A stretch of 64,000 nt of DNA from Rhodospirillaceae bacterium (GTDB taxonomy: Bacteria; Pseudomonadota; Alphaproteobacteria; Kiloniellales; DSM-21159). The position numbers were made by a program, and so were the translations under genes. Below are positions 9,915 through 57,982 of the stretch, in pieces; position 1 is the stretch's first letter; each line of letters begins with the position of its first letter. The notes under the pieces are model-generated. The model was not told the origin of the DNA and ran no database searches. It saw nothing but the letters and a program-made list of their open reading frames with translations. The stretch lies in NCBI GenBank assembly GCA_006969625.1, contig CP030885.1, positions 1,869,430 to 1,933,429 of the forward strand, in the 5' to 3' direction.

Positions 9915-10107
9915 ACCGGACCATTCCCCCGGCGGTTCCCGCAGCGACGCTGGTAAGCGAGTCAATCGCTTACCGCAGTTGCGAAAACCGCTCCGGAATC
10001 TTTCGGAATGAATTTCAAAAATCGGGTTTGTCTTTCGCTTTCCGAAACTTTAGTCTCCACACCGAAGGAAAAACGAAACTCGTTAGAACACGTACCGAGG
10101 GGTTCGC

Positions 10108-36852: not shown

Positions 36853-37860
36853 ATGCGCCGGTTTCTGCTCGCCCTCTGCCTGCCGATCGCGCTGGCCCTC
36901 GCCCCCGCCGCCGCGCCGGCCGAGCCTGTCGCGCCGCGCGACCGGGCGGTGCCGGAGGGCACCGAAGGGCTGAGCGGCGAGGAGATCTACTGGCGCGCGC
37001 TGGAGGCGGCGGAGGCGGGCGACAGCCTGCGCTACGAGCGGCTGCTGGCGGCGGCGGCGGACAAGGGCGACCGCTTCGCCGGCCAGGACCTCGTGCGCCT
37101 GCACTACCTGCGCGGCGCGCCGGATTGGCGGGAGACGGCGCTCCGCTACCTGCGCCCCATCCCCCGCGACCCGCTCGTCGACGAGCAACACCTCTACTGG
37201 CTGGCGGCGGCGGGCGAGCGCCGGGAGCCGCCGCTGCCGCAGGCCCAGACCGACCTCTGGTACCGGATCGCCGCCTGGTCCTCGACGGATCTGCTGTGGC
37301 CGAACCGCGCCGACCTGCAGACCAAGCTGGCGCGCGCCGAAGAGCGCTGGCTGCTCGGCGGCGAGATCTCCTGGCGCTACCGCGAGCTGGTCGGCGAGGC
37401 GCTGCGCCTGCGGCGCGCCGACGGCGCCCGCCTGTACGCGGCCAGCCGCACGGTCTGCGACGCCCCCCTCGAGGACGCCGAATTGCTGTGCATGCAGTAT
37501 CTCGAAGCGGCCGCGGACAAGGATCATGCAAAAGCGCAGTTCGCCTACGCATCCAGGGTCCTGGATGCCCCACCGTACACACACCACGATACGGTCATCG
37601 TCTGGGCGGTCGGCTTGCTTTGTCGCGCCGGACAGAGCGGGATTGCCGAAGCCACTATTCGATTGGCACAGGCAGTCTTGGAACTTGAGGTGGCGCCGTC
37701 GCGGTTTCGTCTACAAGCCTACCTGCAACTAGAAGCGCTAGGTGAACCGCCTGCAGACCTCGGCGGGTTGCAGGATTTGCTGCGGATGTCTCTTACGAAC
37801 GAGCAGCTCAAATGGCTCGCGGACATGGCGGCGTGGGGCCGGTCTGCACCGGGCTGTTGA
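36853..37860 (+). CDS. array protein A1: secreted helical (Sel1/TPR-like?) protein, class I
   Basis: 335 aa. Sec signal MRRFLLALCLPIALALAPAAAPA. Collinear with A2/A4 (TDLWYRIAAW, GGEISWRYRELVGEA, CMQYLEAAADKDHAKAQF, LLCRAGQSG). Four Cys in the mature part, including a C-terminal Cys. Confidence 0.75.
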   Translation: MRRFLLALCLPIALALAPAAAPAEPVAPRDRAVPEGTEGLSGEEIYWRALEAAEAGDSLRYERLLAAAADKGDRFAGQDLVRLHYLRGAPDWRETALRYLRPIPRDPLVDEQHLYWLAAAGERREPPLPQAQTDLWYRIAAWSSTDLLWPNRADLQTKLARAEERWLLGGEISWRYRELVGEALRLRRADGARLYAASRTVCDAPLEDAELLCMQYLEAAADKDHAKAQFAYASRVLDAPPYTHHDTVIVWAVGLLCRAGQSGIAEATIRLAQAVLELEVAPSRFRLQAYLQLEALGEPPADLGGLQDLLRMSLTNEQLKWLADMAAWGRSAPGC

Positions 37861-37890: not shown

Positions 37891-39282
37891 TCAAGCCACC
37901 GGATCTCCCCCGCAGTGCCGGGCGATCTCGCGCTTCAGTTCCTCCATCGCCGCCAGGGCTTCGGCGATCGCGGCGTTGAGCTCTTCGATCTGCTCCGTCA
38001 GCTCGCGCCGCCGTTGCTGCCATGCTTCGAGTGCCGCAGAGGTCTCGGCGATGTCCGGGTCCAGATAGGTCGACGAGGGTCCCGGTTGCGGGCGAAACGG
38101 CTCTTCCTTCTCTGACTGTTTACGGCGTTGCAGGGCCTCGACGCCACGCCCGACGACGACGGCCAGCCGGCCGTAGGGGTGCCTCGACAGCAGCCAGAGC
38201 CCGAGGTCGATCGCCAATTCCAGCGCACCCAAGGCCGCTTGCGTTCGTCGGTAAGCTTGCCAAAGCCTCTCGAGCTCCTGTTCGAGCCGCGTTACCTCTT
38301 TCTGAGCTTTGTCGAGCAGTTCGGGCAGGCCTTTCTTCTTTTCCAGCGCCGTCTCGTATTCGCCCTCGCGCACGCGCAGTTCGTGCCGCAGGGCGCGGCA
38401 TTTCGCAGCACGGTCCGGCCCGTCCGGATGCTGGTCGCCGGGCGGCTTCGGCTTGACGCCGCCGGAGCCCGGCGCGTCGGGCTGCTCCGGCGTGCCCGGT
38501 TCCTCGGGCGGCGCCGGCGGGTTGGGCGTTGGCTCGGGTGTCGGATGTGGCTCCGGCGTTGGCTCCGGCTCCGGCGGCGTGTCGGCGTCCCGTTCGGGCG
38601 CCTGGAGTGGCAGGCCGGCGGCTTGGGCGAGGCTGCGCAGGGTCGGACCGTCGGGAGTGACGAGTCCGTCGACCATCAGGCCGTGCGCCTGCTGGAAGGC
38701 GCGGATGGCGGCGTCGAGGGCCTCGGTGACCTGCCCGCTCGGCTCGTGCGGCGGCTGCCAGTGGTACCAGCCGGTCCCCGCCAGGGCCTTCTGCAGGCCG
38801 ACCACGTCGCGCCGGGCGTTGCCGGGGGTGTTGACGGGAGCGTTGCCGGGGCGCCGGGAGCCGGCCGCCTGCGGCGCGGCGCCGCCGGTCGAAACGCTGC
38901 GGCCGACGGGCCCGCGCGGGTGCAGGTCCTGGGGCTTCGGCTCGGGGGCGAACCAGTCGAGCCCGCGGCGGCCCTCGGCGTACTCGGGCTTGGGCGCGGT
39001 CTCGCGCTGCCGGCCGGTAGCGTCCCGCTGGACCTTGCCGCTGCCGTAAACCTGGGCGTACTGGCGCCGGACGTACTGAAAATAATCCTCGTCCTGGTCC
39101 TGCCAGTACAGCGGGTCGGCCACCAGGCCGGTCAGCGCCCGCTCGATCGGCGTCGGTTCCTCGGGCCGCCGCCGGCGCCGTGCGGCGCGCGGGGCATAGG
39201 GATCGTAGGGATCGTCGGGATCGCCGCGCGAACGGCCACTGGAATCGGGGGCGAGGGGAGATCGAAAGCTGCCGCGGGCCAT
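37891..39282 (-). CDS. array protein B1: conserved N-region + PG_binding_1-like segment + PEPT linker + class I variable helical C-module
   Basis: Start favoured at MARGSFRSP (ATG 39282, GGAG 8 nt upstream); the track ORF begins at GTG 39333. RRDVVGLQKALAGTGWYHWQPPHEPSGQVTEALDAAIRAFQQAHGLMVDGLVTPDGPTLRSL resembles a peptidoglycan-binding repeat. The C-terminal 170 aa have heptad-like, charged coiled-coil character. Confidence 0.75.
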   Translation of the reverse strand: MARGSFRSPLAPDSSGRSRGDPDDPYDPYAPRAARRRRRPEEPTPIERALTGLVADPLYWQDQDEDYFQYVRRQYAQVYGSGKVQRDATGRQRETAPKPEYAEGRRGLDWFAPEPKPQDLHPRGPVGRSVSTGGAAPQAAGSRRPGNAPVNTPGNARRDVVGLQKALAGTGWYHWQPPHEPSGQVTEALDAAIRAFQQAHGLMVDGLVTPDGPTLRSLAQAAGLPLQAPERDADTPPEPEPTPEPHPTPEPTPNPPAPPEEPGTPEQPDAPGSGGVKPKPPGDQHPDGPDRAAKCRALRHELRVREGEYETALEKKKGLPELLDKAQKEVTRLEQELERLWQAYRRTQAALGALELAIDLGLWLLSRHPYGRLAVVVGRGVEALQRRKQSEKEEPFRPQPGPSSTYLDPDIAETSAALEAWQQRRRELTEQIEELNAAIAEALAAMEELKREIARHCGGDPVA

Positions 39283-39428
39283 GGTCCTGCTCCGGGTCGG
39301 TGGCACAGAGGGCATGGACCATAGCAAGAACACTCATCCAAGAGAAGAACAAAAAGGCATCAACTTGCGCGGCGGGAATCCGGCCGTCGGCGGCAGTTGG
39401 CCGGTGGTGTCGCGCGTGCGCTTGTCGT

Positions 39429-39464
39429 CTGGCAGAGCATGGCGCTGCGACCTATAGTGGCGGC
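39429..39464 (+). promoter_or_regulatory. conserved A-gene upstream architecture CTGGCA-N18-TATAGT-N6-ATG
   Basis: Read directly from the sequence. Same layout as upstream of A1, A3 and A5. A duplicate lies at 44295..44330. Confidence 0.45.
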
Positions 39465-40508
39465 ATGCTTCGCACGCTCGCCCGGAGCCTGGCACCGTTG
39501 ATCGCGGCCGTGTGGCTGGCCGCGGACCTTGGCGTGCCCGCGCAGGCCGAGCAAACCACGCCGCAGCCCGAGCCGCCGCGCGACCAAGTGGTGCCGGAGG
39601 GGATCGAGGGGCTGACGGCCGAGGAGATTGCTGAGTTAGCGATCGAGGCGGCACAGGCCGGGGACACCGAGCGCTATCTCGAACTCCTGGCGGCAGCGGC
39701 CTACGCTGGCGATGCACACTCCGCACGTCAGATGGCGCGCTTGGCATATGGGCGCCAGTGGCCGGGCTGGCCAGAGACGGCGCTTCGCTACGTCCGACCT
39801 ATTGCCGATGGTGCTGTTCTGAAGGCTGAATCCTTCTATTGGTTGGGATTCGCCGGGGAGAACGCCATCCCGTCTCTGCCCGAGGAACAAACCGATCTCT
39901 GGTACCGGATCGCCGCTTGGCACATGGCGAACAGCTACGGGGACAGCCGTGCCGACCTGCAAGTGCTTCTCGACCATTATGGAGAGGACTGGCTGAGCGG
40001 CGGCGAGGTTTCGTGGCGGTTTCGCGAGCTGGTGGGCGAAGCCTACGCGTTTCAGGCCAAGAGCGGGTCCTGGTTCTACGAGCAAGCTCTCAGCTATTGC
40101 AGCATGGCCCTCGAGCATGCAGGGATCCTCTGCCTGGACTATTTGGAGGTTGCGGCGCGAAAGGACCACCCGCGCGCGCAGTTCGACTTCGCTTGGCAGG
40201 TGTTGAACGCCTCGCCGGAGACAGCGTCGGAATCACGTCGGGCATGGGCGATGTCGCTCTTGTGTTTGAGCGGACAAAGCGGGGTCCGTGAAGCCACCAT
40301 CCTGCTGGCCCGAAAGATCGTCGAGAACGATCTCGGAGAAGGCCACTTCCGACCGCAAGCCTACTATCAGATTGGATTGATCGAGGAGCGAAATGAAGAG
40401 CTGGAGGAGCTTTTTCTGGAAATCGATAAGCGATTAAGTCACAATGAGCGATGGCAGTTGGAATACTCATATAAAAACGCCTTTCCCATTTCATGCTCAC
40501 ATCGCTGA
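39465..40508 (+). CDS. array protein A2: secreted helical protein, class I (identical to A4)
   Basis: 347 aa. Signal MLRTLARSLAPLIAAVWLAADLGVPAQA. Collinear with A1. Noticeably more AT-rich at its 3' end. Confidence 0.75.
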   Translation: MLRTLARSLAPLIAAVWLAADLGVPAQAEQTTPQPEPPRDQVVPEGIEGLTAEEIAELAIEAAQAGDTERYLELLAAAAYAGDAHSARQMARLAYGRQWPGWPETALRYVRPIADGAVLKAESFYWLGFAGENAIPSLPEEQTDLWYRIAAWHMANSYGDSRADLQVLLDHYGEDWLSGGEVSWRFRELVGEAYAFQAKSGSWFYEQALSYCSMALEHAGILCLDYLEVAARKDHPRAQFDFAWQVLNASPETASESRRAWAMSLLCLSGQSGVREATILLARKIVENDLGEGHFRPQAYYQIGLIEERNEELEELFLEIDKRLSHNERWQLEYSYKNAFPISCSHR

Positions 40509-40529
40509 CGCTGGACCGATGGCCTGCGC

Positions 40530-41375
40530 TCAACTCTGTGGCGGTGCAGGTGGCCGGCCGCCACAGTTCCGAGCAATCTCTTCCTGTAGTCGGTCTATGG
40601 CTGCCCGAGCTTCAGCGATCTCGGCATTCAGGCTTTCGATCTCGTCTGTGAGATCACGCCGTTCCTTCTGAAGCCTCTGCAGCCTCTCGGAGCTCTGCAC
40701 GATTTCGGGGTCAATCGGGCTGGGGGCACTCGGATTCCTGCGCCCCGCGTTCGCATGCTCCTTTAGCGCGCGCCGAAGCTCACGCATGCCGCGATGGACC
40801 GAGGTTGCTAGGAACCCGAGGGGGTGACGCCTGATCAACCACATGCCGAGTTCTATGGTTAACTCGATTGTAGCCTTCGTAGCCGCTTGCTGACGCTCCT
40901 TCTCCCAAAGCTGCGAAATCTTCTCTTCTAACGCTGTGATTCGTCCTTGAAGATCTTGTAGCGCTTCGGGCAGGCCTTTCTTCTTCTCCAGCGCCGTCTC
41001 GTATTCGCCCTCGCGCACGCGGAGTTCGTGCCGCAGGGCGCGGCATTTCGCAGCTCGGTCCGGCCCGTCCGGATGCTGGTCGCCGGGCGGCTTCGGCTTG
41101 ACGCCGCCGGAGTCAGGTTCTTCCGGTTCCTCGGGCTCCTCTGGCGTTGGCGTCGGCGTTGGCTCCGGCTCCGGCGGCGTGTCGGCGTCCCGGTCGGGCG
41201 CCTGGAGGGGCAGGCCGGCGGCTTGGGCGAGGCTGCGCAGGGTCGGGCCGTCGGGAGTGACGAGTCCGTCGACCGTCAGGCCGTGCGCCTGCTGGAAGGC
41301 GCGGATGGCGGCGTCGAGGGCCTCGGTGACCTGCCCGCTCGGCTCGTGCGGCGGCTGCCAGTGGTACCAGCCGGT
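40530..41375 (-). pseudogene. orphan B module B2': 5'-truncated B copy (partial PG-binding segment + linker + class I variant C-module)
   Basis: Homology to B1 starts abruptly at GTGWYHWQPPHEPSGQV. The frame is open up to a TAA at 41475-41477, but there is no ATG/GTG/TTG until GTG 41018 (VREGEYE...). The N-terminal 180 codons and the RBS of full-length B are absent. Confidence 0.7.
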
Positions 41376-41435
41376 GCCGGCCCGCAGGCTCTTCGAGCCT
41401 GCATCCGTGAAAGGTTTGGGACCGCGCGAACGCGG
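41376..41435. repeat. 60-nt double-hairpin element at the 5' breakpoint of orphan B2' (duplicate at 46242..46301)
   Basis: GCAGGCTC-TTC-GAGCCTGC (41384-41402) and GGGACCGCG-CGAA-CGCGGTCCC (41418-41439). B-like sequence (CCTTCTGCAG..) resumes briefly on the far side, so this looks like an insertion into B coding sequence. Confidence 0.6.
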
Positions 41436-41518
41436 TCCCCCGCCTTCTGCAGCCCGAGCAGGACGCGGCGTGCTTTAGTGGCGGCGCTGGCTAGGGGCTG
41501 GCGCGCTGCGGGCGGGCC

Positions 41519-41554
41519 CTGGCGGGGCGGCGGCGAAGCGCCTAGTCTGGTGGC
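41519..41554 (+). promoter_or_regulatory. conserved A-gene upstream architecture CTGGCG-N18-TAGTCT-N6-ATG
   Basis: Read directly from the sequence. A duplicate lies at 46385..46420 upstream of A5. Confidence 0.4.
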
Positions 41555-42646
41555 ATGCGCTGCCAAGTCGCCCTGTTGCTGTGCGTGTGTCTCGCGCTGG
41601 TGCTCGCGCCGGTGCCGGCGCAGGCGGCGCCGATGCAGGAGCGGGGCGCAGGGCAGGACGCCGAGGCGCCGCCCGCGTGGGATTGGCCGCCCGGCCCGAG
41701 CGTGATCTTCGATCCGACGACCGGCGAGACCCTGCGCATGCCGGACGAGCTGCGCGGCCTGCCACCGGAAGAGGTGTATGCGTTTTCCGAGGAGCTGCGC
41801 GCCGAAGGCGACGAGCGGCGAGCGGATACGCTCTTCGCCTTCGCCGGCTACATGGGATACCCTTTCGCGGCCGAGTGGCTGGCGCGTTTGGCTTTCGGTG
41901 AAGACTGGCCGGACGACCCGTCCCGCGTCTTCTACTTCGCCCATCTGGCGACCGAGCGTACCAACATGGCGAGGCGTGCCCACTTCTGGCTGGCGCTTGC
42001 CGGCGGCCATCCGGACATCGGCCTGGCGCCGGAGCAGCTCGAGATCTGGACCTTGGCGGCGGCGGCGGCCATGACGCGGAGTGACCAAGAGCTGTCTCAC
42101 CTCGAGCGCCGCCTCGAGCTGTTGCGCAGCGCACTTGGAGATTACTCCGAGTTGTTGGCGCCCACGGAGAGCGCCGCGCGAGACCTGCGGGCCAGTTTCG
42201 ACGCTGGACCGCACGCGCTTCTGGAGACGTACGCGCCCATCTGCGAAGGGCCTGACCTGCCCGGCCGTGACGTATTCTGTGCCGACATTTTTCTCTTCTT
42301 CCATGGCGACGATCCAAGGGCGATGCGACTGGGGAGCTTTGCGCTTTCGAACTTGGATCTTCGGTTCGAGCAATGGTTCCGCATCAGCAAAGCGCAGCGC
42401 CTGCTCTGTAAGCTGGCCTTGGAGGGTGACTCCGAGGCTGCGTATCGCCTCGGGATCCTGTTCCCCCATCATCAGTCCGCTAGCGGTCCGCAATCTCTCG
42501 ACGTCGCCGTGCTCCTTGCCCGTGCCGCACCTAGACTGCCAGCCGCAGCACCCTTGCTCGAAAACCTGATGGCCGACATGAGCGCGCGCGATAGGAGGCA
42601 AGTCGCGGTCTTGGCCGATGTCGATCGACCCCCGATCCGGTGTTAG
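41555..42646 (+). CDS. array protein A3: secreted helical protein, class II
   Basis: 363 aa. Signal MRCQVALLLCVCLALVLAPVPAQA. The first 100 or so aa are identical to A5 apart from one substitution, then the sequence is homologous but diverged. Motifs YAPICEGPDLPGRDVFC, RLLCKLALEGD, and a C-terminal Cys. Confidence 0.75.
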   Translation: MRCQVALLLCVCLALVLAPVPAQAAPMQERGAGQDAEAPPAWDWPPGPSVIFDPTTGETLRMPDELRGLPPEEVYAFSEELRAEGDERRADTLFAFAGYMGYPFAAEWLARLAFGEDWPDDPSRVFYFAHLATERTNMARRAHFWLALAGGHPDIGLAPEQLEIWTLAAAAAMTRSDQELSHLERRLELLRSALGDYSELLAPTESAARDLRASFDAGPHALLETYAPICEGPDLPGRDVFCADIFLFFHGDDPRAMRLGSFALSNLDLRFEQWFRISKAQRLLCKLALEGDSEAAYRLGILFPHHQSASGPQSLDVAVLLARAAPRLPAAAPLLENLMADMSARDRRQVAVLADVDRPPIRC

Positions 42647-42710
42647 CTGTCTCGAAATCCGGCCCACGCGCCGTGCACGCGACCGCAGGGTTAGCTAAGC
42701 GCACGGCCGG

Positions 42711-44148
42711 CTACGCGCAGTGCCGGCGGATCAGCTCTTCCAGCGCCTCGATGCGCGCCGTCACCTCTGCCTTCCACGCTCGCTCGCGCTCCACCTCGTC
42801 CATGAGCCGAGCCTCCTCGGCCTTTGCCTCCAGATAGGCGTCCCAGAGGGCCCGCAGGTCGCCCGACGCCGCGAGGAGCTCCGGGTCCGGATCCGGCAAG
42901 TCGGGGCTTCCGCGGGGCCGGTCGGGCGCCTCCCGATCATCGCGCCGATCCCGCCTGTCGCGGTCGCCTCCGCCGGGTCGGCTGCGACCCCGGCCGTAGC
43001 GCCAGGACAAACCTTCCAGAATCCATTCTCCTACTTCCTCTGCCAAGTCTTTAAGCATAGAGTCTCGCCGCTTTTCTTGTACCTCTTTCAGTGTTTCTCG
43101 ATATTCCACGACGATATCTGATATTTTCCTCCCTTGTTCGATCAGCGCTTTGTCGAGGCGCTGGATTTCCTCCTCGGCCACCTCGAGCACGATGCGCAGG
43201 CGGGCGAGATCGCGGCGCGACTGCGCGCACTTGGCCGCGTCGGGGTCGTCCGGCGTGTCGGGGTCGTCCGGCGTGTCGGGCTCCTCCGGCTCCTCGGGCG
43301 GCGTTGGCGTCGGCTCCGGCGTCGGCTCCGGCGTCGGCTCCGGGGCCGGCGTCGGCTCCGGCTCCGGCTCCGGCGGCGTGTCGGCGTCCCGGTCGGGCGC
43401 CTGGAGGGGCAGGCCGGCGGCTTGGGCGAGGCTGCGCAGGGTCGGGCCGTCGGGAGTGACGAGTCCGTCGACCGTCAGGCCGTGCGCCTGCTGGAAGGCG
43501 CGGATGGCGGCGTCGAGGGCCGCGGTGACCTGCCCGCTCGGCTCGTGCGGCGGCTGCCAGTGGTACCAGCCGGTCCCCGCCAGGGCCTTCTGCAGGCCGA
43601 CCACGTCGCGCCGGGCGTTGCCGGGGGTGTTGACGGGAGCGTTGCCGGGGCGCCGGGAGCCGGCCGCCTGCGGCGCGGCGCCGCCGGTCGAAACGCTGCG
43701 GCCGACGGGCCCGCGCGGGTGCAGGTCCTGCGGCTTCGGCTTGGGCGCGAACCAGTCGAGCCCGCGGCGGCCCTCGGCGTACTCGGGCTTGGGCGCGGTC
43801 TCGCGCTGCCGGCCGGTGGCGTCGCGCTGGACCTTGCCGCTGCCGTAGACCTGGGCGTACTGGCGCCGGACGTGCTGAAAATAATCCTCGTCCAGGAGCG
43901 AGTTGCTCTGCAACTCGCTCCAGAACGTCGATTCTCGACCGAGGTCACTCGGTCCGGTCCTGCCAGTACAGCGGGTCGGCCACCAGGCCGCTCAGCGCCT
44001 GCTCGATCGGCGCCGGCTCCTCGGGCCGCCGCCGGCGGCGCCTTGCGGCGCGCGGGGCATAGGGATCGTAAGGGTCGCCGGTCGGATCGCCGGTCGGATC
44101 GCCACTGGAATCGGGGGTGAGGGGAGAACGGAAGCTGCCGCGGGCCAT
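42711..44148 (-). pseudogene. array protein B3 (class II C-module), reading frame split by a 62-nt insertion
   Basis: The N-terminal fragment 43945..44148 (MARGSFRSPLTPDSS...LYWQDRTE*) and the C-terminal ORF 42711..43913 lie in different frames. Alignment with B1/B5 shows an extra segment between ..AATAATCCTCGTCC and GGTCCTGCCAGTAC.. . The C-fragment could still be expressed from its internal ATG (MQSNSLLDEDYFQ). Confidence 0.7.
43894..43955. repeat. 62-nt double-hairpin insertion (MITE/REP-like) interrupting B3
   Basis: GGAGCGAGTTGC-TCT-GCAACTCGCTCC (43895-43921) and GACCGAG-GTCA-CTCGGTC (43937-43954). Absent from the equivalent position of B1 (about 39085) and B5 (about 48720). The net +61 nt causes a frameshift. 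Confidence 0.75.
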
Positions 44149-44330
44149 GGTCCTGCTCCGGGTCGGTGGCACAGAGGGAAGCGACCATAGCAAGAACACT
44201 CATCCAAGAGAAGAACAAAAAGGCATCAACTTGCGCGGCGGGAATCCGGCCGTCGGCGGCAGTTGGCCGGTGGTGTCGCGCGTGCGCTTGTCGTCTGGCA
44301 GAGCATGGCGCTGCGACCTATAGTGGCGGC

Positions 44331-45374
44331 ATGCTTCGCACGCTCGCCCGGAGCCTGGCACCGTTGATCGCGGCCGTGTGGCTGGCCGCGGACCTTGGCG
44401 TGCCCGCGCAGGCCGAGCAAACCACGCCGCAGCCCGAGCCGCCGCGCGACCAAGTGGTGCCGGAGGGGATCGAGGGGCTGACGGCCGAGGAGATTGCTGA
44501 GTTAGCGATCGAGGCGGCACAGGCCGGGGACACCGAGCGCTATCTCGAACTCCTGGCGGCAGCGGCCTACGCTGGCGATGCACACTCCGCACGTCAGATG
44601 GCGCGCTTGGCATATGGGCGCCAGTGGCCGGGCTGGCCAGAGACGGCGCTTCGCTACGTCCGACCTATTGCCGATGGTGCTGTTCTGAAGGCTGAATCCT
44701 TCTATTGGTTGGGATTCGCCGGGGAGAACGCCATCCCGTCTCTGCCCGAGGAACAAACCGATCTCTGGTACCGGATCGCCGCTTGGCACATGGCGAACAG
44801 CTACGGGGACAGCCGTGCCGACCTGCAAGTGCTTCTCGACCATTATGGAGAGGACTGGCTGAGCGGCGGCGAGGTTTCGTGGCGGTTTCGCGAGCTGGTG
44901 GGCGAAGCCTACGCGTTTCAGGCCAAGAGCGGGTCCTGGTTCTACGAGCAAGCTCTCAGCTATTGCAGCATGGCCCTCGAGCATGCAGGGATCCTCTGCC
45001 TGGACTATTTGGAGGTTGCGGCGCGAAAGGACCACCCGCGCGCGCAGTTCGACTTCGCTTGGCAGGTGTTGAACGCCTCGCCGGAGACAGCGTCGGAATC
45101 ACGTCGGGCATGGGCGATGTCGCTCTTGTGTTTGAGCGGACAAAGCGGGGTCCGTGAAGCCACCATCCTGCTGGCCCGAAAGATCGTCGAGAACGATCTC
45201 GGAGAAGGCCACTTCCGACCGCAAGCCTACTATCAGATTGGATTGATCGAGGAGCGAAATGAAGAGCTGGAGGAGCTTTTTCTGGAAATCGATAAGCGAT
45301 TAAGTCACAATGAGCGATGGCAGTTGGAATACTCATATAAAAACGCCTTTCCCATTTCATGCTCACATCGCTGA
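44331..45374 (+). CDS. array protein A4 (identical to A2), class I
   Basis: The translation is identical to 39465..40508. Confidence 0.75.
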   Translation: MLRTLARSLAPLIAAVWLAADLGVPAQAEQTTPQPEPPRDQVVPEGIEGLTAEEIAELAIEAAQAGDTERYLELLAAAAYAGDAHSARQMARLAYGRQWPGWPETALRYVRPIADGAVLKAESFYWLGFAGENAIPSLPEEQTDLWYRIAAWHMANSYGDSRADLQVLLDHYGEDWLSGGEVSWRFRELVGEAYAFQAKSGSWFYEQALSYCSMALEHAGILCLDYLEVAARKDHPRAQFDFAWQVLNASPETASESRRAWAMSLLCLSGQSGVREATILLARKIVENDLGEGHFRPQAYYQIGLIEERNEELEELFLEIDKRLSHNERWQLEYSYKNAFPISCSHR

Positions 45375-45395
45375 CGCTGGACCGATGGCCTGCGC

Positions 45396-46241
45396 TCAAC
45401 TCTGTGGCGGTGCAGGTGGCCGGCCGCCACAGTTCCGAGCAATCTCTTCCTGTAGTCGGTCTATGGCTGCCCGAGCTTCAGCGATCTCGGCATTCAGGCT
45501 TTCGATCTCGTCTGTGAGATCACGCCGTTCCTTCTGAAGCCTCTGCAGCCTCTCGGAGCTCTGCACGATTTCGGGGTCAATCGGGCTGGGGGCACTCGGA
45601 TTCCTGCGCCCCGCGTTCGCATGCTCCTTTAGCGCGCGCCGAAGCTCACGCATGCCGCGATGGACCGAGGTTGCTAGGAACCCGAGGGGGTGACGCCTGA
45701 TCAACCACATGCCGAGTTCTATGGTTAACTCGATTGTAGCCTTCGTAGCCGCTTGCTGACGCTCCTTCTCCCAAAGCTGCGAAATCTTCTCTTCTAACGC
45801 TGTGATTCGTCCTTGAAGATCTTGTAGCGCTTCGGGCAGGCCTTTCTTCTTCTCCAGCGCCGTCTCGTATTCGCCCTCGCGCACGCGGAGTTCGTGCCGC
45901 AGGGCGCGGCATTTCGCAGCTCGGTCCGGCCCGTCCGGATGCTGGTCGCCGGGCGGCTTCGGCTTGACGCCGCCGGAGTCAGGTTCTTCCGGTTCCTCGG
46001 GCTCCTCTGGCGTTGGCGTCGGCGTTGGCTCCGGCTCCGGCGGCGTGTCGGCGTCCCGGTCGGGCGCCTGGAGGGGCAGGCCGGCGGCTTGGGCGAGGCT
46101 GCGCAGGGTCGGGCCGTCGGGCGTGACGAGTCCGTCGACCGTCAGGCCGTGCGCCTGCTGGAAGGCGCGGATGGCGGCGTCGAGGGCCTCGGTGACCTGC
46201 CCGCTCGGCTCGTGCGGCGGCTGCCAGTGGTACCAGCCGGT
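45396..46241 (-). pseudogene. orphan B module B4' (identical to B2')
   Basis: The ORF 45396..45884 translation is identical to 40530..41018. The upstream in-frame B-like sequence lacks a start codon, as in B2'. Confidence 0.7.
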
Positions 46242-46420
46242 GCCGGCCCGCAGGCTCTTCGAGCCTGCATCCGTGAAAGGTTTGGGACCGCGCGAACGCG
46301 GTCCCCCGCCTTCTGCAGCCCGAGCAGGACGCGGCGTGCTTTAGTGGCGGCGCTGGCTAGGGGCTGGCGCGCTGCGGGCGGGCCCTGGCGGGGCGGCGGC
46401 GAAGCGCCTAGTCTGGTGGC

Positions 46421-47512
46421 ATGCGCTGCCAAGTCGCCCTGTTGCTGTGCGTGTGTCTCGCGCTGGTGCTCGCGCCGGTGCCGGCGCAGGCGGCGCCGAT
46501 GCAGGAGCGGGGCGCAGGGCAGGACGCCGAGGAGCCGCCCGCGTGGGATTGGCCGCCCGGCCCGAGCGTGATCTTCGATCCGACGACCGGCGAGACCCTG
46601 CGCATGCCGGACGAGCTGCGCGGCCTGCCACCGGAAGAGGTGTATGCGTTTTCCGAGGAGCTGCGCGCCGAAGGCGACGAGCGGCGAGCGGATACGCTCT
46701 TCGCCTTCGCCGGCTACATGGGGTATCCGCCCGCTGCGTCAAACCTGGCGCGTTTGGCTTTCGGTGAAGATTGGCCGGACGACCCGTCGCGCGTCTTCTA
46801 CCTCGCCCATCTGGCGACCGAGCGCAGCACGCTACCCAGCTCTGCCTATTTTTGGCTCGCGATTGCCGGCGCCCATCCCAAGATCGCTCTCGGACCGGAG
46901 CAAATCGAGATCTGGACGCTCGTCACCGCTGCCTCCATGGCGTATCCAGATCAGGAGCCGGCGTTTCTCGATGAAGCGCTCGGTCGTCTGAGCCGGTGGC
47001 TCGGCAACTACACCGAGCTGCTGCGCCCGGTTGAGATGACAACTCGGCGCCTGCAGGCCAAGTTCGACGAAGGTTCAGCGGCGCTCGTGGACGCCTATGC
47101 GCCCGTCTGCGAGGGGCCCGACCTGCCCGGCCGGGACGTGTTCTGCGCCAACGTTTTCCTATTCGATCACGGTGACGATCCGAAAGCGATGCGCTTCGGC
47201 AGTTTCGCGCTCTCGAACCTCGATTTGCGCTTCGTTGCCTGGTACCGGATCAATGCAGCGCAAAGGCTACTTTGCAACCTGGCGAATGGCGGCGATATCG
47301 AGGCTCTGCGGCGGTTGGCACGGCTGTACCAATATCATCAGCCGGCCAGTCGGCCGCATCCGAGAGATGTTGCCGTCCTGTTTACCCGCGCCGCACCGAC
47401 CATGCCGAGCGTTGCCTCAGCGCTCGAGAAGCTGCTGGCAGACATGAGCGCGGAAGACCGGACCCAGGTGGAAGCTCTGGCAGCGACCGACGGATTGCCG
47501 CCGAGGTGCTAA
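46421..47512 (+). CDS. array protein A5: secreted helical protein, class II
   Basis: 363 aa. Shares the signal peptide and first 100 or so residues with A3 (one substitution, A/E), then diverges while staying collinear (YAPVCEGPDLPGRDVFC, RLLCNLANGGD, C-terminal Cys). Confidence 0.75.
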   Translation: MRCQVALLLCVCLALVLAPVPAQAAPMQERGAGQDAEEPPAWDWPPGPSVIFDPTTGETLRMPDELRGLPPEEVYAFSEELRAEGDERRADTLFAFAGYMGYPPAASNLARLAFGEDWPDDPSRVFYLAHLATERSTLPSSAYFWLAIAGAHPKIALGPEQIEIWTLVTAASMAYPDQEPAFLDEALGRLSRWLGNYTELLRPVEMTTRRLQAKFDEGSAALVDAYAPVCEGPDLPGRDVFCANVFLFDHGDDPKAMRFGSFALSNLDLRFVAWYRINAAQRLLCNLANGGDIEALRRLARLYQYHQPASRPHPRDVAVLFTRAAPTMPSVASALEKLLADMSAEDRTQVEALAATDGLPPRC

Positions 47513-47564
47513 CCGAGCCTTCGCCGCCGATTGACCTGATCGACGGAGTAAGCGGTGTGGTGGA

Positions 47565-48917
47565 TTAGGTACACTGCTCGCGGATCAGTTTCTCCAAAGC
47601 GTCGATACGCCTTACGATGTTGCTCTTTCTCCGCCTTTCGCTCTCCAGCTCGCGAGCGAGCTTCGCGTGCTCCGCTTTCGCTTCCCGGTAATCGTCCCAT
47701 AAGCCCCGCAGCTTGATCGAAGCTTCGAGGAGTTCCGGGTCCGGCTCTGGCAAATCGGGCACATCCTCGGTGTCGCCCCGGCGCTTGCCGTCGTTGCGTT
47801 CGTCTGGAGACCTGGTGTCTCTGGGGCGGCGGCGCCCGATTTTCAATCTTTGGAGAAAAAGCCCGAGCGCATACTCTGCAGCATCTTCGAGGATAGATCC
47901 TTTAGCCTTTTCGACTGCGTCATTGTAAGCAATTTGGAATTCTTCTGCTTTGTCCCATACGGTTTCCGCCTGCTCTGCTTGCATGGATTCGAGGCGCTGG
48001 ATTTCCTCCTCGGCCACCTCGAGCACGATGCGCAGGCGGGCGAGATCGCGGCGCGACTGCGCGCACTTGGCCGCGTCGGGGTCGTCCGGCACGTCGGGGT
48101 CGTCCGGCGTGTCGGGCTCCTCCCGCTCCTCGGGCGGCGTTGGCGTCGGCTCCGCGTCTGGCTTTGGCTCCGGGTTCGGCGTTGGCGTCGGCGTTGGCTC
48201 CGGCTCCGGCGGCGTGTCGGCGTCCCGGTCGGGCGCCTGGAGTGGCAGGCCGGCGGCTTGGGCGAGGCTGCGCAGGGTCGGGCCGTCGGGCGTGACGAGT
48301 CCGTCGACCGTCAGGCCGTGCGCCTGCTGGAAGGCGCGGATGGCGGCGTCGAGGGCTTCGGTGACCTGCCCGCTCGGCTCGTGCGGCGGCTGCCAGTGGT
48401 ACCAGCCGGTCCCCGCCAGGGCCTTCTGCAGGCCGACCACGTCGCGCCGGGCGTTGCCGGGGGTGTTGACGGGAGCGTTGCCGGGGCGCCGGGAGCCGGC
48501 CGCCTGCGGCGCGGCGCCGCCGGTCGAAACGCTGCGGCCGACGGGCCCGCGCGGGTGCAGGTCCTGGGGCTTCGGCTCGGGCGCGAACCAGTCGAGCCCG
48601 CGGCGGCCCTCGGCGTACTCGGGCTTGGGCGCGGTCTCGCGCTGCCGGCCGGTAGCGTCCCGCTGGACCTTGCCGCTGCCGTAAACCTGGGCGTACTGGC
48701 GCCGGACGTACTGAAAATAATCCTCGTCCTGGTCCTGCCAGTACAGCGGGTCGGCCACCAGGCCGCTCAGCGCCCGCTCGATCGGCGCCGGTTCCTCGGG
48801 CCGCCGCCGGCGCCGTGCGGCGCGCGGGGCATAGGGATCGTAGGGATCGTCGGGATCGCCGCGCGAACGGCCACTGGAATCGGGGGCGAGGGGAGATCGA
48901 AAGCTGCCGCGGGCCAT
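47565..48917 (-). CDS. array protein B5: full-length, class II variable C-module
   Basis: MARGSFRSP start at 48917 with the same GGAG context. The N-terminal 260 or so aa are nearly identical to B1. The C-module shares AAKCAQSRRDLARLRIVLEVAEEEIQRL with B3, then diverges. Ends ..LIREQCT. Confidence 0.75.
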   Translation of the reverse strand: MARGSFRSPLAPDSSGRSRGDPDDPYDPYAPRAARRRRRPEEPAPIERALSGLVADPLYWQDQDEDYFQYVRRQYAQVYGSGKVQRDATGRQRETAPKPEYAEGRRGLDWFAPEPKPQDLHPRGPVGRSVSTGGAAPQAAGSRRPGNAPVNTPGNARRDVVGLQKALAGTGWYHWQPPHEPSGQVTEALDAAIRAFQQAHGLTVDGLVTPDGPTLRSLAQAAGLPLQAPDRDADTPPEPEPTPTPTPNPEPKPDAEPTPTPPEEREEPDTPDDPDVPDDPDAAKCAQSRRDLARLRIVLEVAEEEIQRLESMQAEQAETVWDKAEEFQIAYNDAVEKAKGSILEDAAEYALGLFLQRLKIGRRRPRDTRSPDERNDGKRRGDTEDVPDLPEPDPELLEASIKLRGLWDDYREAKAEHAKLARELESERRRKSNIVRRIDALEKLIREQCT

Positions 48918-49082
48918 GGTCCTGCTCCGGGTCGGTGGCACAGAGGGCATGGACCATAGCAAGAACATTTGCCCGAGAGAAGAACAAAAAGTGTATATTC
49001 AGGCATTGCCGCCGATGCCTTGCGGCACGCCGGCCGGCGTCCGACACTGTCGCTCCCGCTGGCGGTGCAGGAGGCGAGGCCA

Positions 49083-55595: not shown

Positions 55596-56261
55596 TCAGT
55601 CGGCGTCGACCAAGCCGGCGCCGGCGCCGGTGGCGCGCGAGGTCTCGCTCGCCGGCACAAGACTAAGATGCACCAGCGTCTGTACGCGGGTCCATACGCC
55701 CTGGTCCACCGACACGCCTTCGTCCAGGACCGGTAGGAGCGCCCGCCGTCTGCCCTGCTCGCGGGGGCTGGCGCAAGCGGCCTGGATGAAAGGTAATGGT
55801 GCCTCCAGGTCGGCCCAGGCGCCGGCGACCAGGTAGGCTGCGCCGTTGCGGCAGAGCGCCGTGCCGTCGTCCCAGCGCAACAGCAGGCCCGGCCCCTTCG
55901 CTGCGCTGTAGACGCCGAAGGCGGCCAGCAGCAGCAACGGCTGCACGACCGGTTCGAAGCTCAGAGGGCCGAGCCCGGCACGCAGCAGGTCGGCGGCGCT
56001 CGGCCCCGAGTGCCAAGCCGCCGGCGGCTTCGCTCCGTCTCCGGCGAGATGCGGCGTCGGCGCGGCGGTCAGACGGCCGAGCCCGGTCTCGCCGGCGGAC
56101 CAAGCCTCCAGCTCGGCCAGGACGACCGGTACGCCGTCAAAGCCCTGCGTGCACAGCCAGGCGGCGGAGGCACCCAGATCCTCGGCATAGCCTTGCGGCA
56201 CCCCACAGCCGAGGGCGGCGCGCCGCAGGTAGGTCTCGACCTCGTTGAGCGACAGCCTCAT
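55596..56261 (-). CDS. DUF3726-like hypothetical protein
   Basis: Start at MRLSLNEVETYLRRAALGCGVPQGYAEDLGASAAWLCTQGFDG (ATG complement 56259-56261), overlapping the upstream stop by 4 nt. The family call is from memory of this N-terminal pattern and is tentative. Confidence 0.55.
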   Translation of the reverse strand: MRLSLNEVETYLRRAALGCGVPQGYAEDLGASAAWLCTQGFDGVPVVLAELEAWSAGETGLGRLTAAPTPHLAGDGAKPPAAWHSGPSAADLLRAGLGPLSFEPVVQPLLLLAAFGVYSAAKGPGLLLRWDDGTALCRNGAAYLVAGAWADLEAPLPFIQAACASPREQGRRRALLPVLDEGVSVDQGVWTRVQTLVHLSLVPASETSRATGAGAGLVDAD

Positions 56262-57982
56262 GCGGCGGTGGCGTCGTCCGGCGCCAGCACGGGCAGGCAC
56301 CAGGTGTCGGCCTCGGGTGCGCCCAGTTCCTCGGGCAGGGGGGCGCCCTGGTACATGGCGATCCGGGTCCAGCGGTCCGACTTCGGGTCGAACTTGGCGG
56401 CGCCGAAGAACGACAGCTTGCACCGCAGCAGGTCGATCGGCCGCATCGAGGCGGCGATCAGATTGTCGCGGATCTCGCCGTAGGGGTGCTGGGCGATCAC
56501 CTGGGCGCGGCGGACCAAGTGGCGGAACTGTGGGTGGCGCAGCAGGAAGACCGCCAGCGGTTCCTGCGCGTCGCCCGTCTCCAGCGCGGCGGCCAGCGCC
56601 CGGATGTCGCGGGCGACGGCAATCGACATCTCCAGCTCGCTGCCGGCTTCGGCGGAGCGGTCGCCCAGGCGCGGCTCGAGCTTCTCGGCCGAGACGTACC
56701 AGAAGACGCGGCTGGCTTCGGGGTCGGCGAAGTCGATCGCCAGCGCCCAGTCGTAGTGCGTCTGCAGCAGCCGACGCAGCGCGCCCACCGACATCGCCGG
56801 GTCGAGCTGGCCGCCCTCGCTCGCGGTCATGCAGCAGGCCAACCCGTCCACCAGCTCGCCGTGCGGCTCCAGCATCAGGGCGAACAGCAGTTCTTGGGCT
56901 TCCGGTCCCAGCTCCGCCTCCGCCCAGCCGAACAGGCGGTCCCACGGGCGGAGTTCGTCCCAGAGCCGGGCTTCGGGCCGGCCCTGCACGGCCAGGCGGT
57001 CGAGATCCCGGCTGAGACGGGCGTTGGCCTCGGTCTGCTGCCGGTCTTCGACGTGCCACTCGGCGATATGGGCCCGCGCGCGCTCCAGCAGGTGGCCGAA
57101 GGCGGCAATGTCCTCGGGTGCGGCCGTCGGCAGGCTGCGCACCCGCGCCAGCGCCGTTTCGCGCGCCAGAATCCAGTTGTTGATCAGCACCGGGTGGTTG
57201 ACCAGAAACGGGGCCATGCCCAGTCCGGTCGAGTTGCCGACGCCCAGGTAGCGCTTCAGATGGGGATGCAGCGCGACGGCGGTGATCGGCGCGCGGCAGC
57301 GCGCCACGTGCTCGGCCAGGGCCGTGGTGAAGCAGCGAATCAGGTAGACGGCGAGCATCTCCGCCTGGAAGGCGCCGGTGAACTCCGGCCTATCGGCGAT
57401 TCGCCCGCGGTCGGCGATGCCGAACTTGCCGTTGCCGTAGACCGCCGTGGTGCGCATCAGGTAGCCGACGGCGCGGAGCATGTCCCGATCCGGCTGCTGC
57501 CCCGCGGTGAGACGTTGGACCACGTGCTCGAACATCCGCACCGACTTGTTGGCCCGGCTCAGAACCAGGTCGCGCGGGCTGAAGCGCCCGGCCTCCTGGC
57601 GCGGCGCGTTGGCGGCGAGACGGTCGATCTCGCCCGGGTCCGGCACGCCGTCGTAGAGCACGAAGGTAGCGTCCCAGGCCTCGGCGATGACCCGGTCGCT
57701 GCGCGCCTCGGCGGCGAGCGGCTGGGAAAACGCGACCAGACTGTAGGTGCGTTCTTCGACCCGCATCGAGAGCACGGCGGTGCCGTAGCCTTCCTCGTCC
57801 AGCTCCCAGCGGTCGTAGCGCAGGCGCGCGCCGCAGCGGCCGAGCCGACGTAGCAGCGTCGGCATGAAGCTGAGGCGGGTGGCGAAGAAACAGCCGAGGC
57901 GGGCCAGCCGCATCACCTGCGCCGGCGGCCGCAGTGGCACCTCGGGCTCGCCGGTCGCGCGGAGCTGCGGGTCAGCCGGCAT
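56258..57982 (-). CDS. conserved hypothetical protein (about 550-574 aa), function unknown
   Basis: Long ORF with good composition, translationally coupled on both sides (to the dipeptidase upstream and the DUF3726 gene downstream). An alternative start is MRLARLGCFF at 57913. I see no recognisable motif. Confidence 0.6.
   Translation of the reverse strand: MPADPQLRATGEPEVPLRPPAQVMRLARLGCFFATRLSFMPTLLRRLGRCGARLRYDRWELDEEGYGTAVLSMRVEERTYSLVAFSQPLAAEARSDRVIAEAWDATFVLYDGVPDPGEIDRLAANAPRQEAGRFSPRDLVLSRANKSVRMFEHVVQRLTAGQQPDRDMLRAVGYLMRTTAVYGNGKFGIADRGRIADRPEFTGAFQAEMLAVYLIRCFTTALAEHVARCRAPITAVALHPHLKRYLGVGNSTGLGMAPFLVNHPVLINNWILARETALARVRSLPTAAPEDIAAFGHLLERARAHIAEWHVEDRQQTEANARLSRDLDRLAVQGRPEARLWDELRPWDRLFGWAEAELGPEAQELLFALMLEPHGELVDGLACCMTASEGGQLDPAMSVGALRRLLQTHYDWALAIDFADPEASRVFWYVSAEKLEPRLGDRSAEAGSELEMSIAVARDIRALAAALETGDAQEPLAVFLLRHPQFRHLVRRAQVIAQHPYGEIRDNLIAASMRPIDLLRCKLSFFGAAKFDPKSDRWTRIAMYQGAPLPEELGAPEADTWCLPVLAPDDATAA

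Follow-up and report, generated by a model that had tools for sequence, protein, structure and literature searches.

In a 64,000-nucleotide stretch of the genome of a Rhodospirillaceae bacterium (contig CP030885.1; hereafter the window), five tail-to-tail gene pairs occupy 36.8-49.0 kb, each consisting of a gene A on the plus strand and a gene B on the minus strand. The variable C-terminal module of each B protein is bracketed by exactly two cysteines, and each mature A protein carries four collinear cysteines. Our preferred reading, to which we give a rough probability of 0.55, is that these cysteines form structural disulfides in a polymorphic effector/immunity-like cassette system in which A and B are a matched extracytoplasmic pair. 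We infer from the evidence set out below that the disulfides form, that A binds and neutralizes B, and that B is toxic or active on the membrane or the cell wall. The ten genes are listed here.

36853..37860, plus strand: A1, intact, 335 residues, class I, with a signal peptide and a predicted Sel1-like α-solenoid; mature Cys codons at 37456, 37489, 37621 and 37855 (Cys202, Cys213, Cys257 and Cys335)
37891..39282, minus strand: B1, intact, 463 residues, effector-like, with an N-domain, PG_binding_1 (38653-38808), a Pro-rich linker and a predicted coiled-coil hairpin module (37891-38400)
39465..40508, plus strand: A2, intact, 347 residues, class I, sharing about 44% identity with A1; its four Cys are encoded at 40098, 40131, 40263 and 40494
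40530..41447, minus strand: B2, putative silent cassette, 5′-truncated; both Cys kept (41043-45 and 40563-65)
41555..42646, plus strand: A3, intact, 363 residues, class II; mature Cys codons at 42242, 42278, 42407 and 42641
42711..43913, minus strand: B3, class II, 5′ part interrupted; both Cys kept (43227-29 and 42717-19)
44331..45374, plus strand: A4, identical to A2
45396..46313, minus strand: B4, identical to B2, putative silent cassette, 5′-truncated
46421..47512, plus strand: A5, intact, 363 residues, class II, with 73% identity to A3 (the two genes agree over their first 80 codons and diverge after that); mature Cys codons at 47108, 47144, 47273 and 47507
47565..48917, minus strand: B5, intact, 450 residues, class II, effector-like, with PG_binding_1 at 48288-48443; Cys285 at 48063-65 and Cys449 at 47571-73

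Cysteine pattern of the B and A proteins

Positions 37891-38400 correspond exactly to the C-terminal module of B1 on the minus strand, from the stop codon to the codon of Cys295. Cys295 (38398-38400) and Cys457 (37912-37914) are the only cysteines in the whole of B1, as are Cys285 and Cys449 in B5. The identical, 5′-truncated B2 and B4 and the interrupted B3 each have two Cys at equivalent places. In the five window copies the second Cys stands within 2-11 residues of the C-terminus and the Cys-Cys span is 160-170 residues. Between classes the modules are 16-29% identical, and the only invariant residues in the alignment of the variable region are the two Cys, one Glu and one Leu. An earlier examination of the letters alone (the sequence-only reading) had claimed that two Cys, the second of them 2-11 residues from the end, bracket every variable B module and hold their places despite the divergence between them; residue counts and identities for B1-B5 bear this out, with the proviso that 'every B variant' takes in silent or broken copies, B2 and B4 being without a usable start and B3 being interrupted.

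A1 has Cys202, Cys213, Cys257 and Cys335 and one further Cys in its signal peptide. A2 and A4 have four Cys, and A3 and A5 have four mature Cys and three in the signal peptide. The same reading had described four collinear Cys in every mature A protein of both classes, and these do form invariant columns in the alignment of A1-A5, despite an identity between classes I and II of only about 27%.

The background frequency of Cys was taken from 14 housekeeping proteins of the window and is 0.86%. At this frequency the probability that a stretch of 160 residues contains no internal Cys is about 0.25 per module. Chance falls far short of explaining an invariant Cys column across the diverged classes. 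At homologous positions the Cys codon is TGC in some copies and TGT in others, which argues for selection on the residue and not merely for conservation of the DNA.

Cysteines in relatives outside the window

Both Cys are also present in B-side relatives: P0003, P0004 and P0036 (the last two from metagenomes) and the L006 B fragment. Their contexts are LTEC...ERC and LTEC...QRC in P0004 and P0036, and RERC...KLC in the L006 fragment. P0003 is a third intact B paralogue, located outside the window on the same 4.62-Mb contig, and represents a third class of hairpin module (LTEC...ESKC). On the A side, all four Cys recur in P0007 and P0008, which share 51% identity with A1. An alignment of homologues, which the sequence-only reading had named as a check, thus agrees with the pattern in the window. 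Searches for close homologues, made with B1 and with an A alignment, returned only the same genome and one or two metagenome or Logan matches each. Only generic PG_binding matches were obtained in the genome-contig scan, none at all in the viral-contig scan with P0111, and matches to only three short contigs in the metagenome-contig scan.

For the wider family, a profile of the B N-domain and PG_binding_1 was searched against 1.84 billion representative proteins, which gave 976 matches at E < 1e-3. Complete coiled-coil modules in this family have either both Cys (17 modules in 12 classes) or neither (three modules in two classes); modules with a single Cys number zero. The Cys-less modules are those of P0029 and P0057/P0064 and have, by eye, Ala or Ser at roughly equivalent places. 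P0100 has an additional Cys five residues past the second Cys (Cys2). The first Cys (Cys1) is followed by Leu or Ile at position +3 in 15 of the 17 two-Cys modules, and a hydrophobic residue stands three or four positions ahead of Cys2 in most of them. The 19-mer of highest hydrophobicity is found about halfway between the two Cys in 14 of the 17, which corresponds to the tip of the hairpin.

Over 61 family proteins, the total number of Cys is zero in 33, two in 19, four in one and odd in eight, so that 52 of the 61 have zero or two; several of the eight odd-numbered proteins are visibly frameshifted or mis-started. The Cys content of the family is 0.22%, against the background of 0.86%. Depletion of Cys together with even Cys numbers is a signature of extracytoplasmic proteins (PMC7678975).

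Two Cys separated by 120-126 residues were also seen in C-termini that are not coiled coils: one such domain occurs in P0024, P0046 and P0110, and another in P0063, which has a third Cys elsewhere in the protein. The enzymatic C-termini that were checked (M23, DUF6973 and Hydrolase_2-like) contain no Cys, with the exception of one in P0160. Such pairing of Cys could be common to the non-enzymatic warheads in general.

Domain order and predicted structure of B

B consists of an N-terminal region with the motif DPLYWQDQDEDYF...DATGR, a PG_binding_1 domain, a Pro/Glu-rich linker and a variable coiled-coil module of ~170 residues. In B1, PG_binding_1 (PF01471) covers residues 159-210 and scores 38.4 bits, above the gathering threshold of 23 (E = 1.4e-9). 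It was the only domain found in B with Pfam and NCBIfam. PHROGs returned only the peptidoglycan-binding regions of endolysins, and matches to MuF or phage-structural families were absent from both Pfam and PHROGs. PADLOC gave only coiled-coil noise, sequence searches of the PDB were uninformative and no transmembrane segment was found.

Monomers of the B1 module and of A1, both of class I, were predicted using AlphaFold2 (AF2). The B1 module was predicted as an antiparallel helical hairpin with a predicted local distance difference test (pLDDT) value of 80.9 and a predicted template-modelling score (pTM) of 0.59. Its helices span residues 8-35, 38-86, 91-112 and 128-176; RHPYG forms a turn, and residues 113-127 a disordered Pro-rich loop. 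Cys14 lies within the first helix and Cys176 is the final residue of the last helix; the last helix packs on the first and the pLDDT is 91-97 in both arms. The prediction agrees with the helical hairpin of B assumed in the sequence-only reading and places one Cys at each end of it.

Structural searches with the B module using Foldseek retrieved antiparallel coiled-coil hairpins only (Smc arms, EnvC with a query-normalized template-modelling score, TMq, of 0.61, the RipA N-domain, PcsB and the PI3K iSH2 domain). Against the PDB and BFVD no match was significant, the hits being generic coiled coils (E ≥ 0.09). Several matches to 'internal virion protein' entries, at E values of 0.15-0.6, are a weak lead only.

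A heptad fit places Cys1 at core position a and Cys2 at position e, one turn beyond the last core residue, in seven of seven modules. If that last core residue packs on the Leu or Ile at Cys1+3, the two Cys would form the next, closing layer of the coiled coil.

Scaffold family and convergent partner genes

The family is built on one scaffold with interchangeable C-termini. The scaffold is either DPLYW..DATGR followed by PG_binding_1 or a pair of PG_binding_1 domains. Its C-termini include Peptidase_M23 (P0021 at 34.4 bits, above the cut-off of 28.7; P0159 and P0160 as well), DUF6973 (P0069), a weak match to the cell-wall Hydrolase_2 family (P0038), several unknown domains and the coiled-coil hairpins. 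A convergent partner gene follows B in six other loci. Counting the window, this makes seven independent settings, and the partner is Sel1-like in all those where its type could be assigned.

L006: in synteny with the window; partner homologous to A1 (51%)
L008: two Sel1-like genes after B, with faint or weak Sel1 matches
L009/L010: inside a T7-like prophage, between the phage scaffold and major capsid genes; partner with a faint or weak Sel1 match
L014: partner of 349 residues with a signal peptide and four Cys, without a Pfam match
L018/L019: chromosomal; convergent partner with a weak or faint Sel1 match
L020: chromosomal; convergent partner with a weak or faint Sel1 match; the B protein is P0162

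At L013, which encodes an M23 variant, the convergent neighbour is different, small and Cys-rich. The only taxonomically labelled relative is alphaproteobacterial.

In the prophage, a B-like gene with two PG_binding_1 domains and a two-Cys hairpin and its convergent Sel1 gene lie at 8001-10127 of L009 and 1910-4036 of L010. The host is an alphaproteobacterial metagenome-assembled genome, and the scaffold gene of the prophage is a Phage_T7_Capsid member. N-termini closely related to those of the L009/L010 B-like proteins are found elsewhere with an M23 peptidase in place of the hairpin.

Predicted fold and cysteine pairing of A

All of A1-A5 have a Sec-type signal peptide. The AF2 model of A1 (pLDDT 84.5) consists of 16 short helices of 8-16 residues. 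Its top Foldseek matches are Sel1-like repeat (SLR) proteins, namely c5321 (E = 1.6e-4), an Oxalobacter Sel1 protein (4.6e-4) and HcpC (1.4e-3); the matches to PA5086-88, immunity proteins of a type VI secretion system (T6SS), are weak (E values of 0.02-0.12). On this model, A has a predicted SLR fold, that is, tandem α/α repeats arranged in a superhelix.

In the A1 model, Cys202 is the last residue of helix 191-202, Cys213 is the fifth residue of helix 209-222, Cys257 lies inside helix 246-261 and Cys335 is the C-terminal residue. The disulfides of Hcp proteins join one repeat's C-terminal end to the following repeat's N-terminal end (PMC3851747). In A, Cys202 and Cys213 (CX10-11C) most likely link the end of a modelled helix with the beginning of the one after it, in the manner of Helicobacter Hcp. 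The remaining two, Cys257 and Cys335, are likely to pin the C-terminal tail to an internal helix, by analogy with the L020 partner: the latter's mature chain contains just two Cys, an internal and a penultimate one, which must pair with each other, and this makes such a tether likely in A. A Cys near the C-terminus occurs in three partner families (A, L014 and L020), in L014 at three residues from the end. The partner proteins have two or four mature Cys, one of them with a further Cys beside the presumed signal-peptide cleavage site. A lipoprotein assignment of A was rejected: the residue at -1 before the Cys in LALC is Leu, there is no lipobox and the signal peptide of A2 has no Cys.

Cassette exchange, mosaicism and silent copies

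B1, B5 and P0003 are 88-98% identical over residues 1-233 and unrelated thereafter. The class of A equals that of the convergent B in five of five pairs (I-I, I-I, II-II, I-I and II-II) and does not match that of the divergent neighbouring B. Sliding-window comparison of the copies shows near-identical constant parts, with a proportion of synonymous differences (pS) of 0-0.06 over the first 80 codons of A3 and A5 and the first ~240 codons of B. Over the rest of A and the B module, synonymous sites are saturated (pS 0.6-0.8) and the proportion of nonsynonymous differences (pN) is lower than pS. This profile makes the variable unit one contiguous block of DNA composed of the two converging 3′ ends. 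The divergence within it marks the block as old functional alleles moved by recombination. The G+C content at third codon positions (GC3) is 0.69-0.76 in the B modules, 0.72 in A2, 0.79 in A3 and 0.77 in A5, against 0.89-0.96 in the constant part of B and mostly 0.85-0.97 in housekeeping genes. The lower values in the cassettes suggest horizontal exchange.

In B2 and B4 the reading frame opens inside PG_binding_1, and the first start codon of B2 is a GTG at 41018, downstream of Cys1. The 5′ half of these genes is absent and about 300 nucleotides of homology are kept; A2 and A4 are intact and have promoter-like sites. By analogy with the loci for contact-dependent inhibition (CDI) and Rhs proteins (PMC3482391), B2 and B4 are regarded as putative orphan silent cassettes. 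The promoter-like sites are as follows.

39429..39458, plus strand: sigma-70-like promoter match just upstream of A2; consensus match only
44295-44324, plus strand: identical sigma-70-like site upstream of A4; consensus match only

Both matches (CTGGCA-18-TATAGT) lie only a few bases before the annotated start codons; this hints that the orphan partner genes are expressed independently and perhaps as leaderless transcripts.

The 5′ part of B3 (up to about 44148) is separated from the remainder by a 61-nucleotide insertion with a stop codon (~43886-43946), located right after ..PLYWQD. The insertion contains a perfect hairpin with a 12-bp stem, GGAGCGAGTTGC-AGA-GCAACTCGCTCC, which is unique in the window, and a second, shorter hairpin was seen by eye. 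In the metagenome contig L001 (~9930-9990) a distant homologue is frame-broken at the same PLYW site with a different short insertion.

The region also contains a tandem duplication of 4,866 bp (39334-44199 and 44200-49065). A2-B2 in one half is identical to A4-B4 in the other, whereas A3-B3 and A5-B5 differ strongly (73% identity for A and a pS of 0.6-0.8 in the cassette). The mosaic implies that a gene conversion or a replacement of cassettes took place recently, and speaks against a simple duplication.

Proposed mechanism and alternatives

On the preferred reading, B would be a polymorphic effector aimed at the envelope and held at the wall by PG_binding_1. Its C-terminal module, a long antiparallel coiled-coil hairpin with a moderately hydrophobic or amphipathic tip, would serve as a non-enzymatic warhead or recognition module. 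Cys1, a core residue (position a) where the first helix begins, and Cys2, capping the C-terminal end of the last helix, would be the closing layer of the coiled coil, and a disulfide between them, formed in an oxidizing compartment, would staple the open end of the hairpin. A would be the Sec-exported cognate periplasmic SLR binder or immunity protein, with two intramolecular disulfides. The N-domain and PG_binding_1 of B would stay constant while recombination swaps B's 3′ part together with the 3′ two-thirds of A; B2 and B4 would be silent donor cassettes whose A genes are intact. Candidate export routes for B are phage lysis or ejection, for which there is a prophage-borne member and the MuF precedent (PMC5576092), or a route not yet recognized.

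The sequence-only reading had likewise suggested that a disulfide staples the ends of the B hairpin and that both partners occupy an oxidizing compartment. The predicted hairpin, the Cys at its ends and the exported A protein agree with this; the part concerning the compartment of B does not find the signal peptide that it would call for. Several further observations weigh against the preferred reading. Neither a signal peptide nor a Tat motif nor a recognizable trafficking domain was found in B, and no secretion or phage genes were found in the 64-kb window; passage of B to an oxidizing compartment would follow only from PG_binding_1 and the periplasmic partner. The bracketing staple is dispensable, given the three Cys-less modules. 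The alignment used by AF2 for the B1 module was just six sequences deep, and helix-length arithmetic lets Cys1 and Cys2 be anywhere between in register and offset by about 9 Å along the axis. No match was found for A1-A5 in Pfam or NCBIfam, the Pfam Sel1 model (PF08238) missing them at E values of up to 0.1. The L011 homologue P0158 has no Sel1 neighbour, and the orientation of the partner genes is convergent, not co-directional as in the classical toxin-immunity layout.

Instead of an intramolecular staple, the B cysteines might cross-link two B chains through homotypic disulfides and so hold a parallel coiled-coil dimer together, as in the λ i-spanin Rz, a periplasmic coiled coil with two Cys, one of them penultimate, that are both linked in the homodimer (PMC5295617). 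Beside this precedent, such a dimer would accommodate the near-C-terminal Cys with its short tail, the location of Cys1 at core position a, which fits an a-a′ disulfide, and the prophage-encoded family member; the AF2 run was made on a monomer and cannot reveal dimers. We consider the dimer unlikely. The 17:3:0 distribution of both, neither and single Cys fits an intramolecular pair better, the two Rz bonds being separately dispensable; the monomer model packs the last helix confidently on the first; Cys2 is at an e or helix-cap position, which is not a core position of a parallel dimer; and B is without the membrane anchor of spanins. Very unlikely, in our judgement, is a mixed disulfide in which the C-terminal Cys of A is bonded to a Cys of B and traps or anchors it, an intermolecular bond that the sequence-only reading had raised and that the evidence does not support. 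Both proteins do have a Cys at or near the extreme C-terminus, and the co-variation of A and B classes implies physical contact. With four Cys in A and two in B, however, all can pair internally, and the Sel1 partners of Cys-bearing B proteins at L008, L009 and L018 have no C-terminal Cys. The L020 partner, conversely, has its penultimate Cys although the C-terminal part of its B protein, P0162, is Cys-free, so that this tail Cys must pair within the partner.

B might also remain in the reducing cytoplasm with its cysteines as free thiols used for metal or redox sensing, acylation or processing at the boundary, while A could still be disulfide-bonded. The lack of a signal peptide or known export domain in B and its relatives is what this would predict, and Cys1 stands exactly at the boundary between constant and variable parts, where the processing sites of polymorphic toxins lie. 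It is nonetheless quite unlikely, since the substrate of PG_binding_1 and of the alternative peptidoglycan-hydrolase C-termini is outside the cytoplasm, the partner is Sec-exported, and the family as a whole is depleted in Cys and has Cys counts of zero or two. Two Cys are too few for a standard metal site. Cys1 occupies a helix-core position within a conserved C-x-x-L and is lost together with Cys2 in the Cys-less classes. A role of Cys1 as a processing nucleophile was rejected on the same two grounds, its helix-core position and the joint loss of both Cys. Finally, the pattern could be due to chance or be a by-product of DNA homology at a recombination boundary; Cys1 does lie in a stretch common to copies of the same class (pS 0.10 for B1 against B2, codons 281-320). 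The probability of this is close to negligible. Cys1 is kept in unrelated contexts (AAKC, LTEC, RERC, RARC, KRDC, GKKC, KEKC, PDQC, EDPC and TETC), Cys2 stands in fully diverged sequence, the codons differ between TGC and TGT and the background frequency of Cys is low.

Comparison with known systems

The A-B locus resembles the polymorphic toxin-immunity loci of the CdiA-CT/CdiI and Rhs types (Zhang et al., 2012; PMC3482391) in having a constant N-terminal part with C-termini swapped among close relatives, an adjacent co-varying partner, silent cassettes truncated at the 5′ end but still equipped with a homology arm and an intact partner gene, and cassettes of foreign composition. It differs from them in that B has no recognized trafficking domain (signal peptide, two-partner secretion domain, PAAR/VgrG, LXG or MuF), the partner is placed tail to tail so that the variable block spans both 3′ ends, and the module is a predicted non-enzymatic coiled-coil hairpin. 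With the MuF phage toxins (PMC5576092), L009/L010 share a polymorphic C-terminus encoded among head-morphogenesis genes, in the scaffold-capsid interval, and an immunity-like neighbour. Unlike these toxins, B has no MuF domain, and, like most of its relatives, the window locus lies on the chromosome away from phage genes; the MuF toxins are a family of Firmicutes phages (PMC5576092), whereas the labelled relative is alphaproteobacterial.

Some periplasmic T6SS effectors need DsbA of the target cell for their toxicity (PMC5792426). T6SS effectors that act in the periplasm offer a parallel to B as signal-less effectors, to A through a Sec-exported Sel1-like immunity protein (PA5086-5088) and to the proposed disulfide through this recipient-DsbA precedent. 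The effector fold is different and the similarity of A to PA5086-88 is weak; no T6SS linkage (VgrG/Hcp/PAAR, a gene cluster or a marker of the MIX/FIX type) was found in the 64-kb window or in the flanks of the relatives examined. HcpB and HcpC (PDB entry 1OUV; PMC3851747) are exported Sel1-like solenoids with Cys pairs that run from the end of a repeat to the start of the next, as Cys202 and Cys213 are placed in the A model. They have a disulfide in each repeat, whereas A would have one such pair and one tail-tethering pair; their biology is that of host interaction, and A scores nothing on the Pfam Sel1 model.

Like B, Rz is a phage-associated periplasmic coiled coil, on the preferred reading of B, with exactly two conserved Cys, one near the C-terminus, and disulfides that stabilize the assembly. 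Rz has intermolecular disulfides, a membrane anchor and a lipoprotein partner, in contrast to the peptidoglycan-binding domain and both-or-neither Cys of B. Assignment of B as a spanin was rejected: it has no transmembrane segment, its partner is Sel1-like, with a signal peptide and without a lipobox, and no holin or endolysin is encoded nearby. EnvC, RipA and PcsB likewise have long extracytoplasmic antiparallel hairpins on domains directed at the cell wall (TMq of up to 0.61). The matches to them are generic for the fold, at E ≥ 0.09, and there is no sequence relationship to B; their hairpins regulate a fused hydrolase through FtsX, and nothing suggests this for B.

Neither the N-domain nor the hairpin module nor A is represented by a model in Pfam, NCBIfam, PHROGs or PADLOC, and literature searches found no account of this architecture, which is not proof that none exists. 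Polymorphic effector/immunity systems with orphan cassettes are known; what is apparently new is the scaffold, the proposed hairpin warhead bracketed by a disulfide, the tail-to-tail layout of the cassette and its carriage by phages on occasion. A more specific proposal is offered tentatively, and we hold it to be rather less than evenly probable: the genes would encode previously undescribed polymorphic envelope-targeting effectors, prophage-borne in at least one lineage, with a hairpin warhead that is disulfide-locked, and possibly activated, only in the oxidizing periplasm of the producer or of the target (the latter by hijacking DsbA), a cognate periplasmic Sel1-like neutralizer, and both 3′ ends exchanged as one tail-to-tail cassette.

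That envelope proteins conserve a pair of Cys would by itself be unsurprising; the value of the pair here is as evidence of compartment and fold for an unannotated system. If the proposal is true, the hairpin would be a new non-enzymatic warhead fold in bacterial or phage conflict, closed by a disulfide and recognizable by the sequence rule C-x-x-L/I ... h-x-x-x-C. The N-terminal scaffold (DPLYW..DATGR and PG_binding_1) would likewise be new and could lead to an unrecognized, possibly phage-dependent, delivery mechanism. Convergence of the two genes would keep the specificity regions of effector and immunity protein contiguous, so that matched pairs stay linked through recombination, and the Cys pair would be a cheap experimental handle on localization and activity.

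Flanking genes

The locus is flanked by ordinary metabolic genes, which include TctABC, an acyl-CoA ligase, ApbA, a metallo-β-lactamase (MBL) hydrolase, a dienelactone hydrolase (DLH), a betaine ABC transporter and DabAB, among others. An open reading frame of 574 residues at 56258-57982 on the minus strand, beside a dipeptidase-like gene, has a strong coding signal (GC3 0.92) and no Pfam match at E ≤ 1e-5; its product is unannotated but looks conserved. At 60103-63997 on the plus strand, a DabB-like (proton antiporter-like) gene is paired with a DabA gene (PF10070, 884 bits); this pair is a probable inorganic-carbon transporter and unrelated to the cysteines of A and B.

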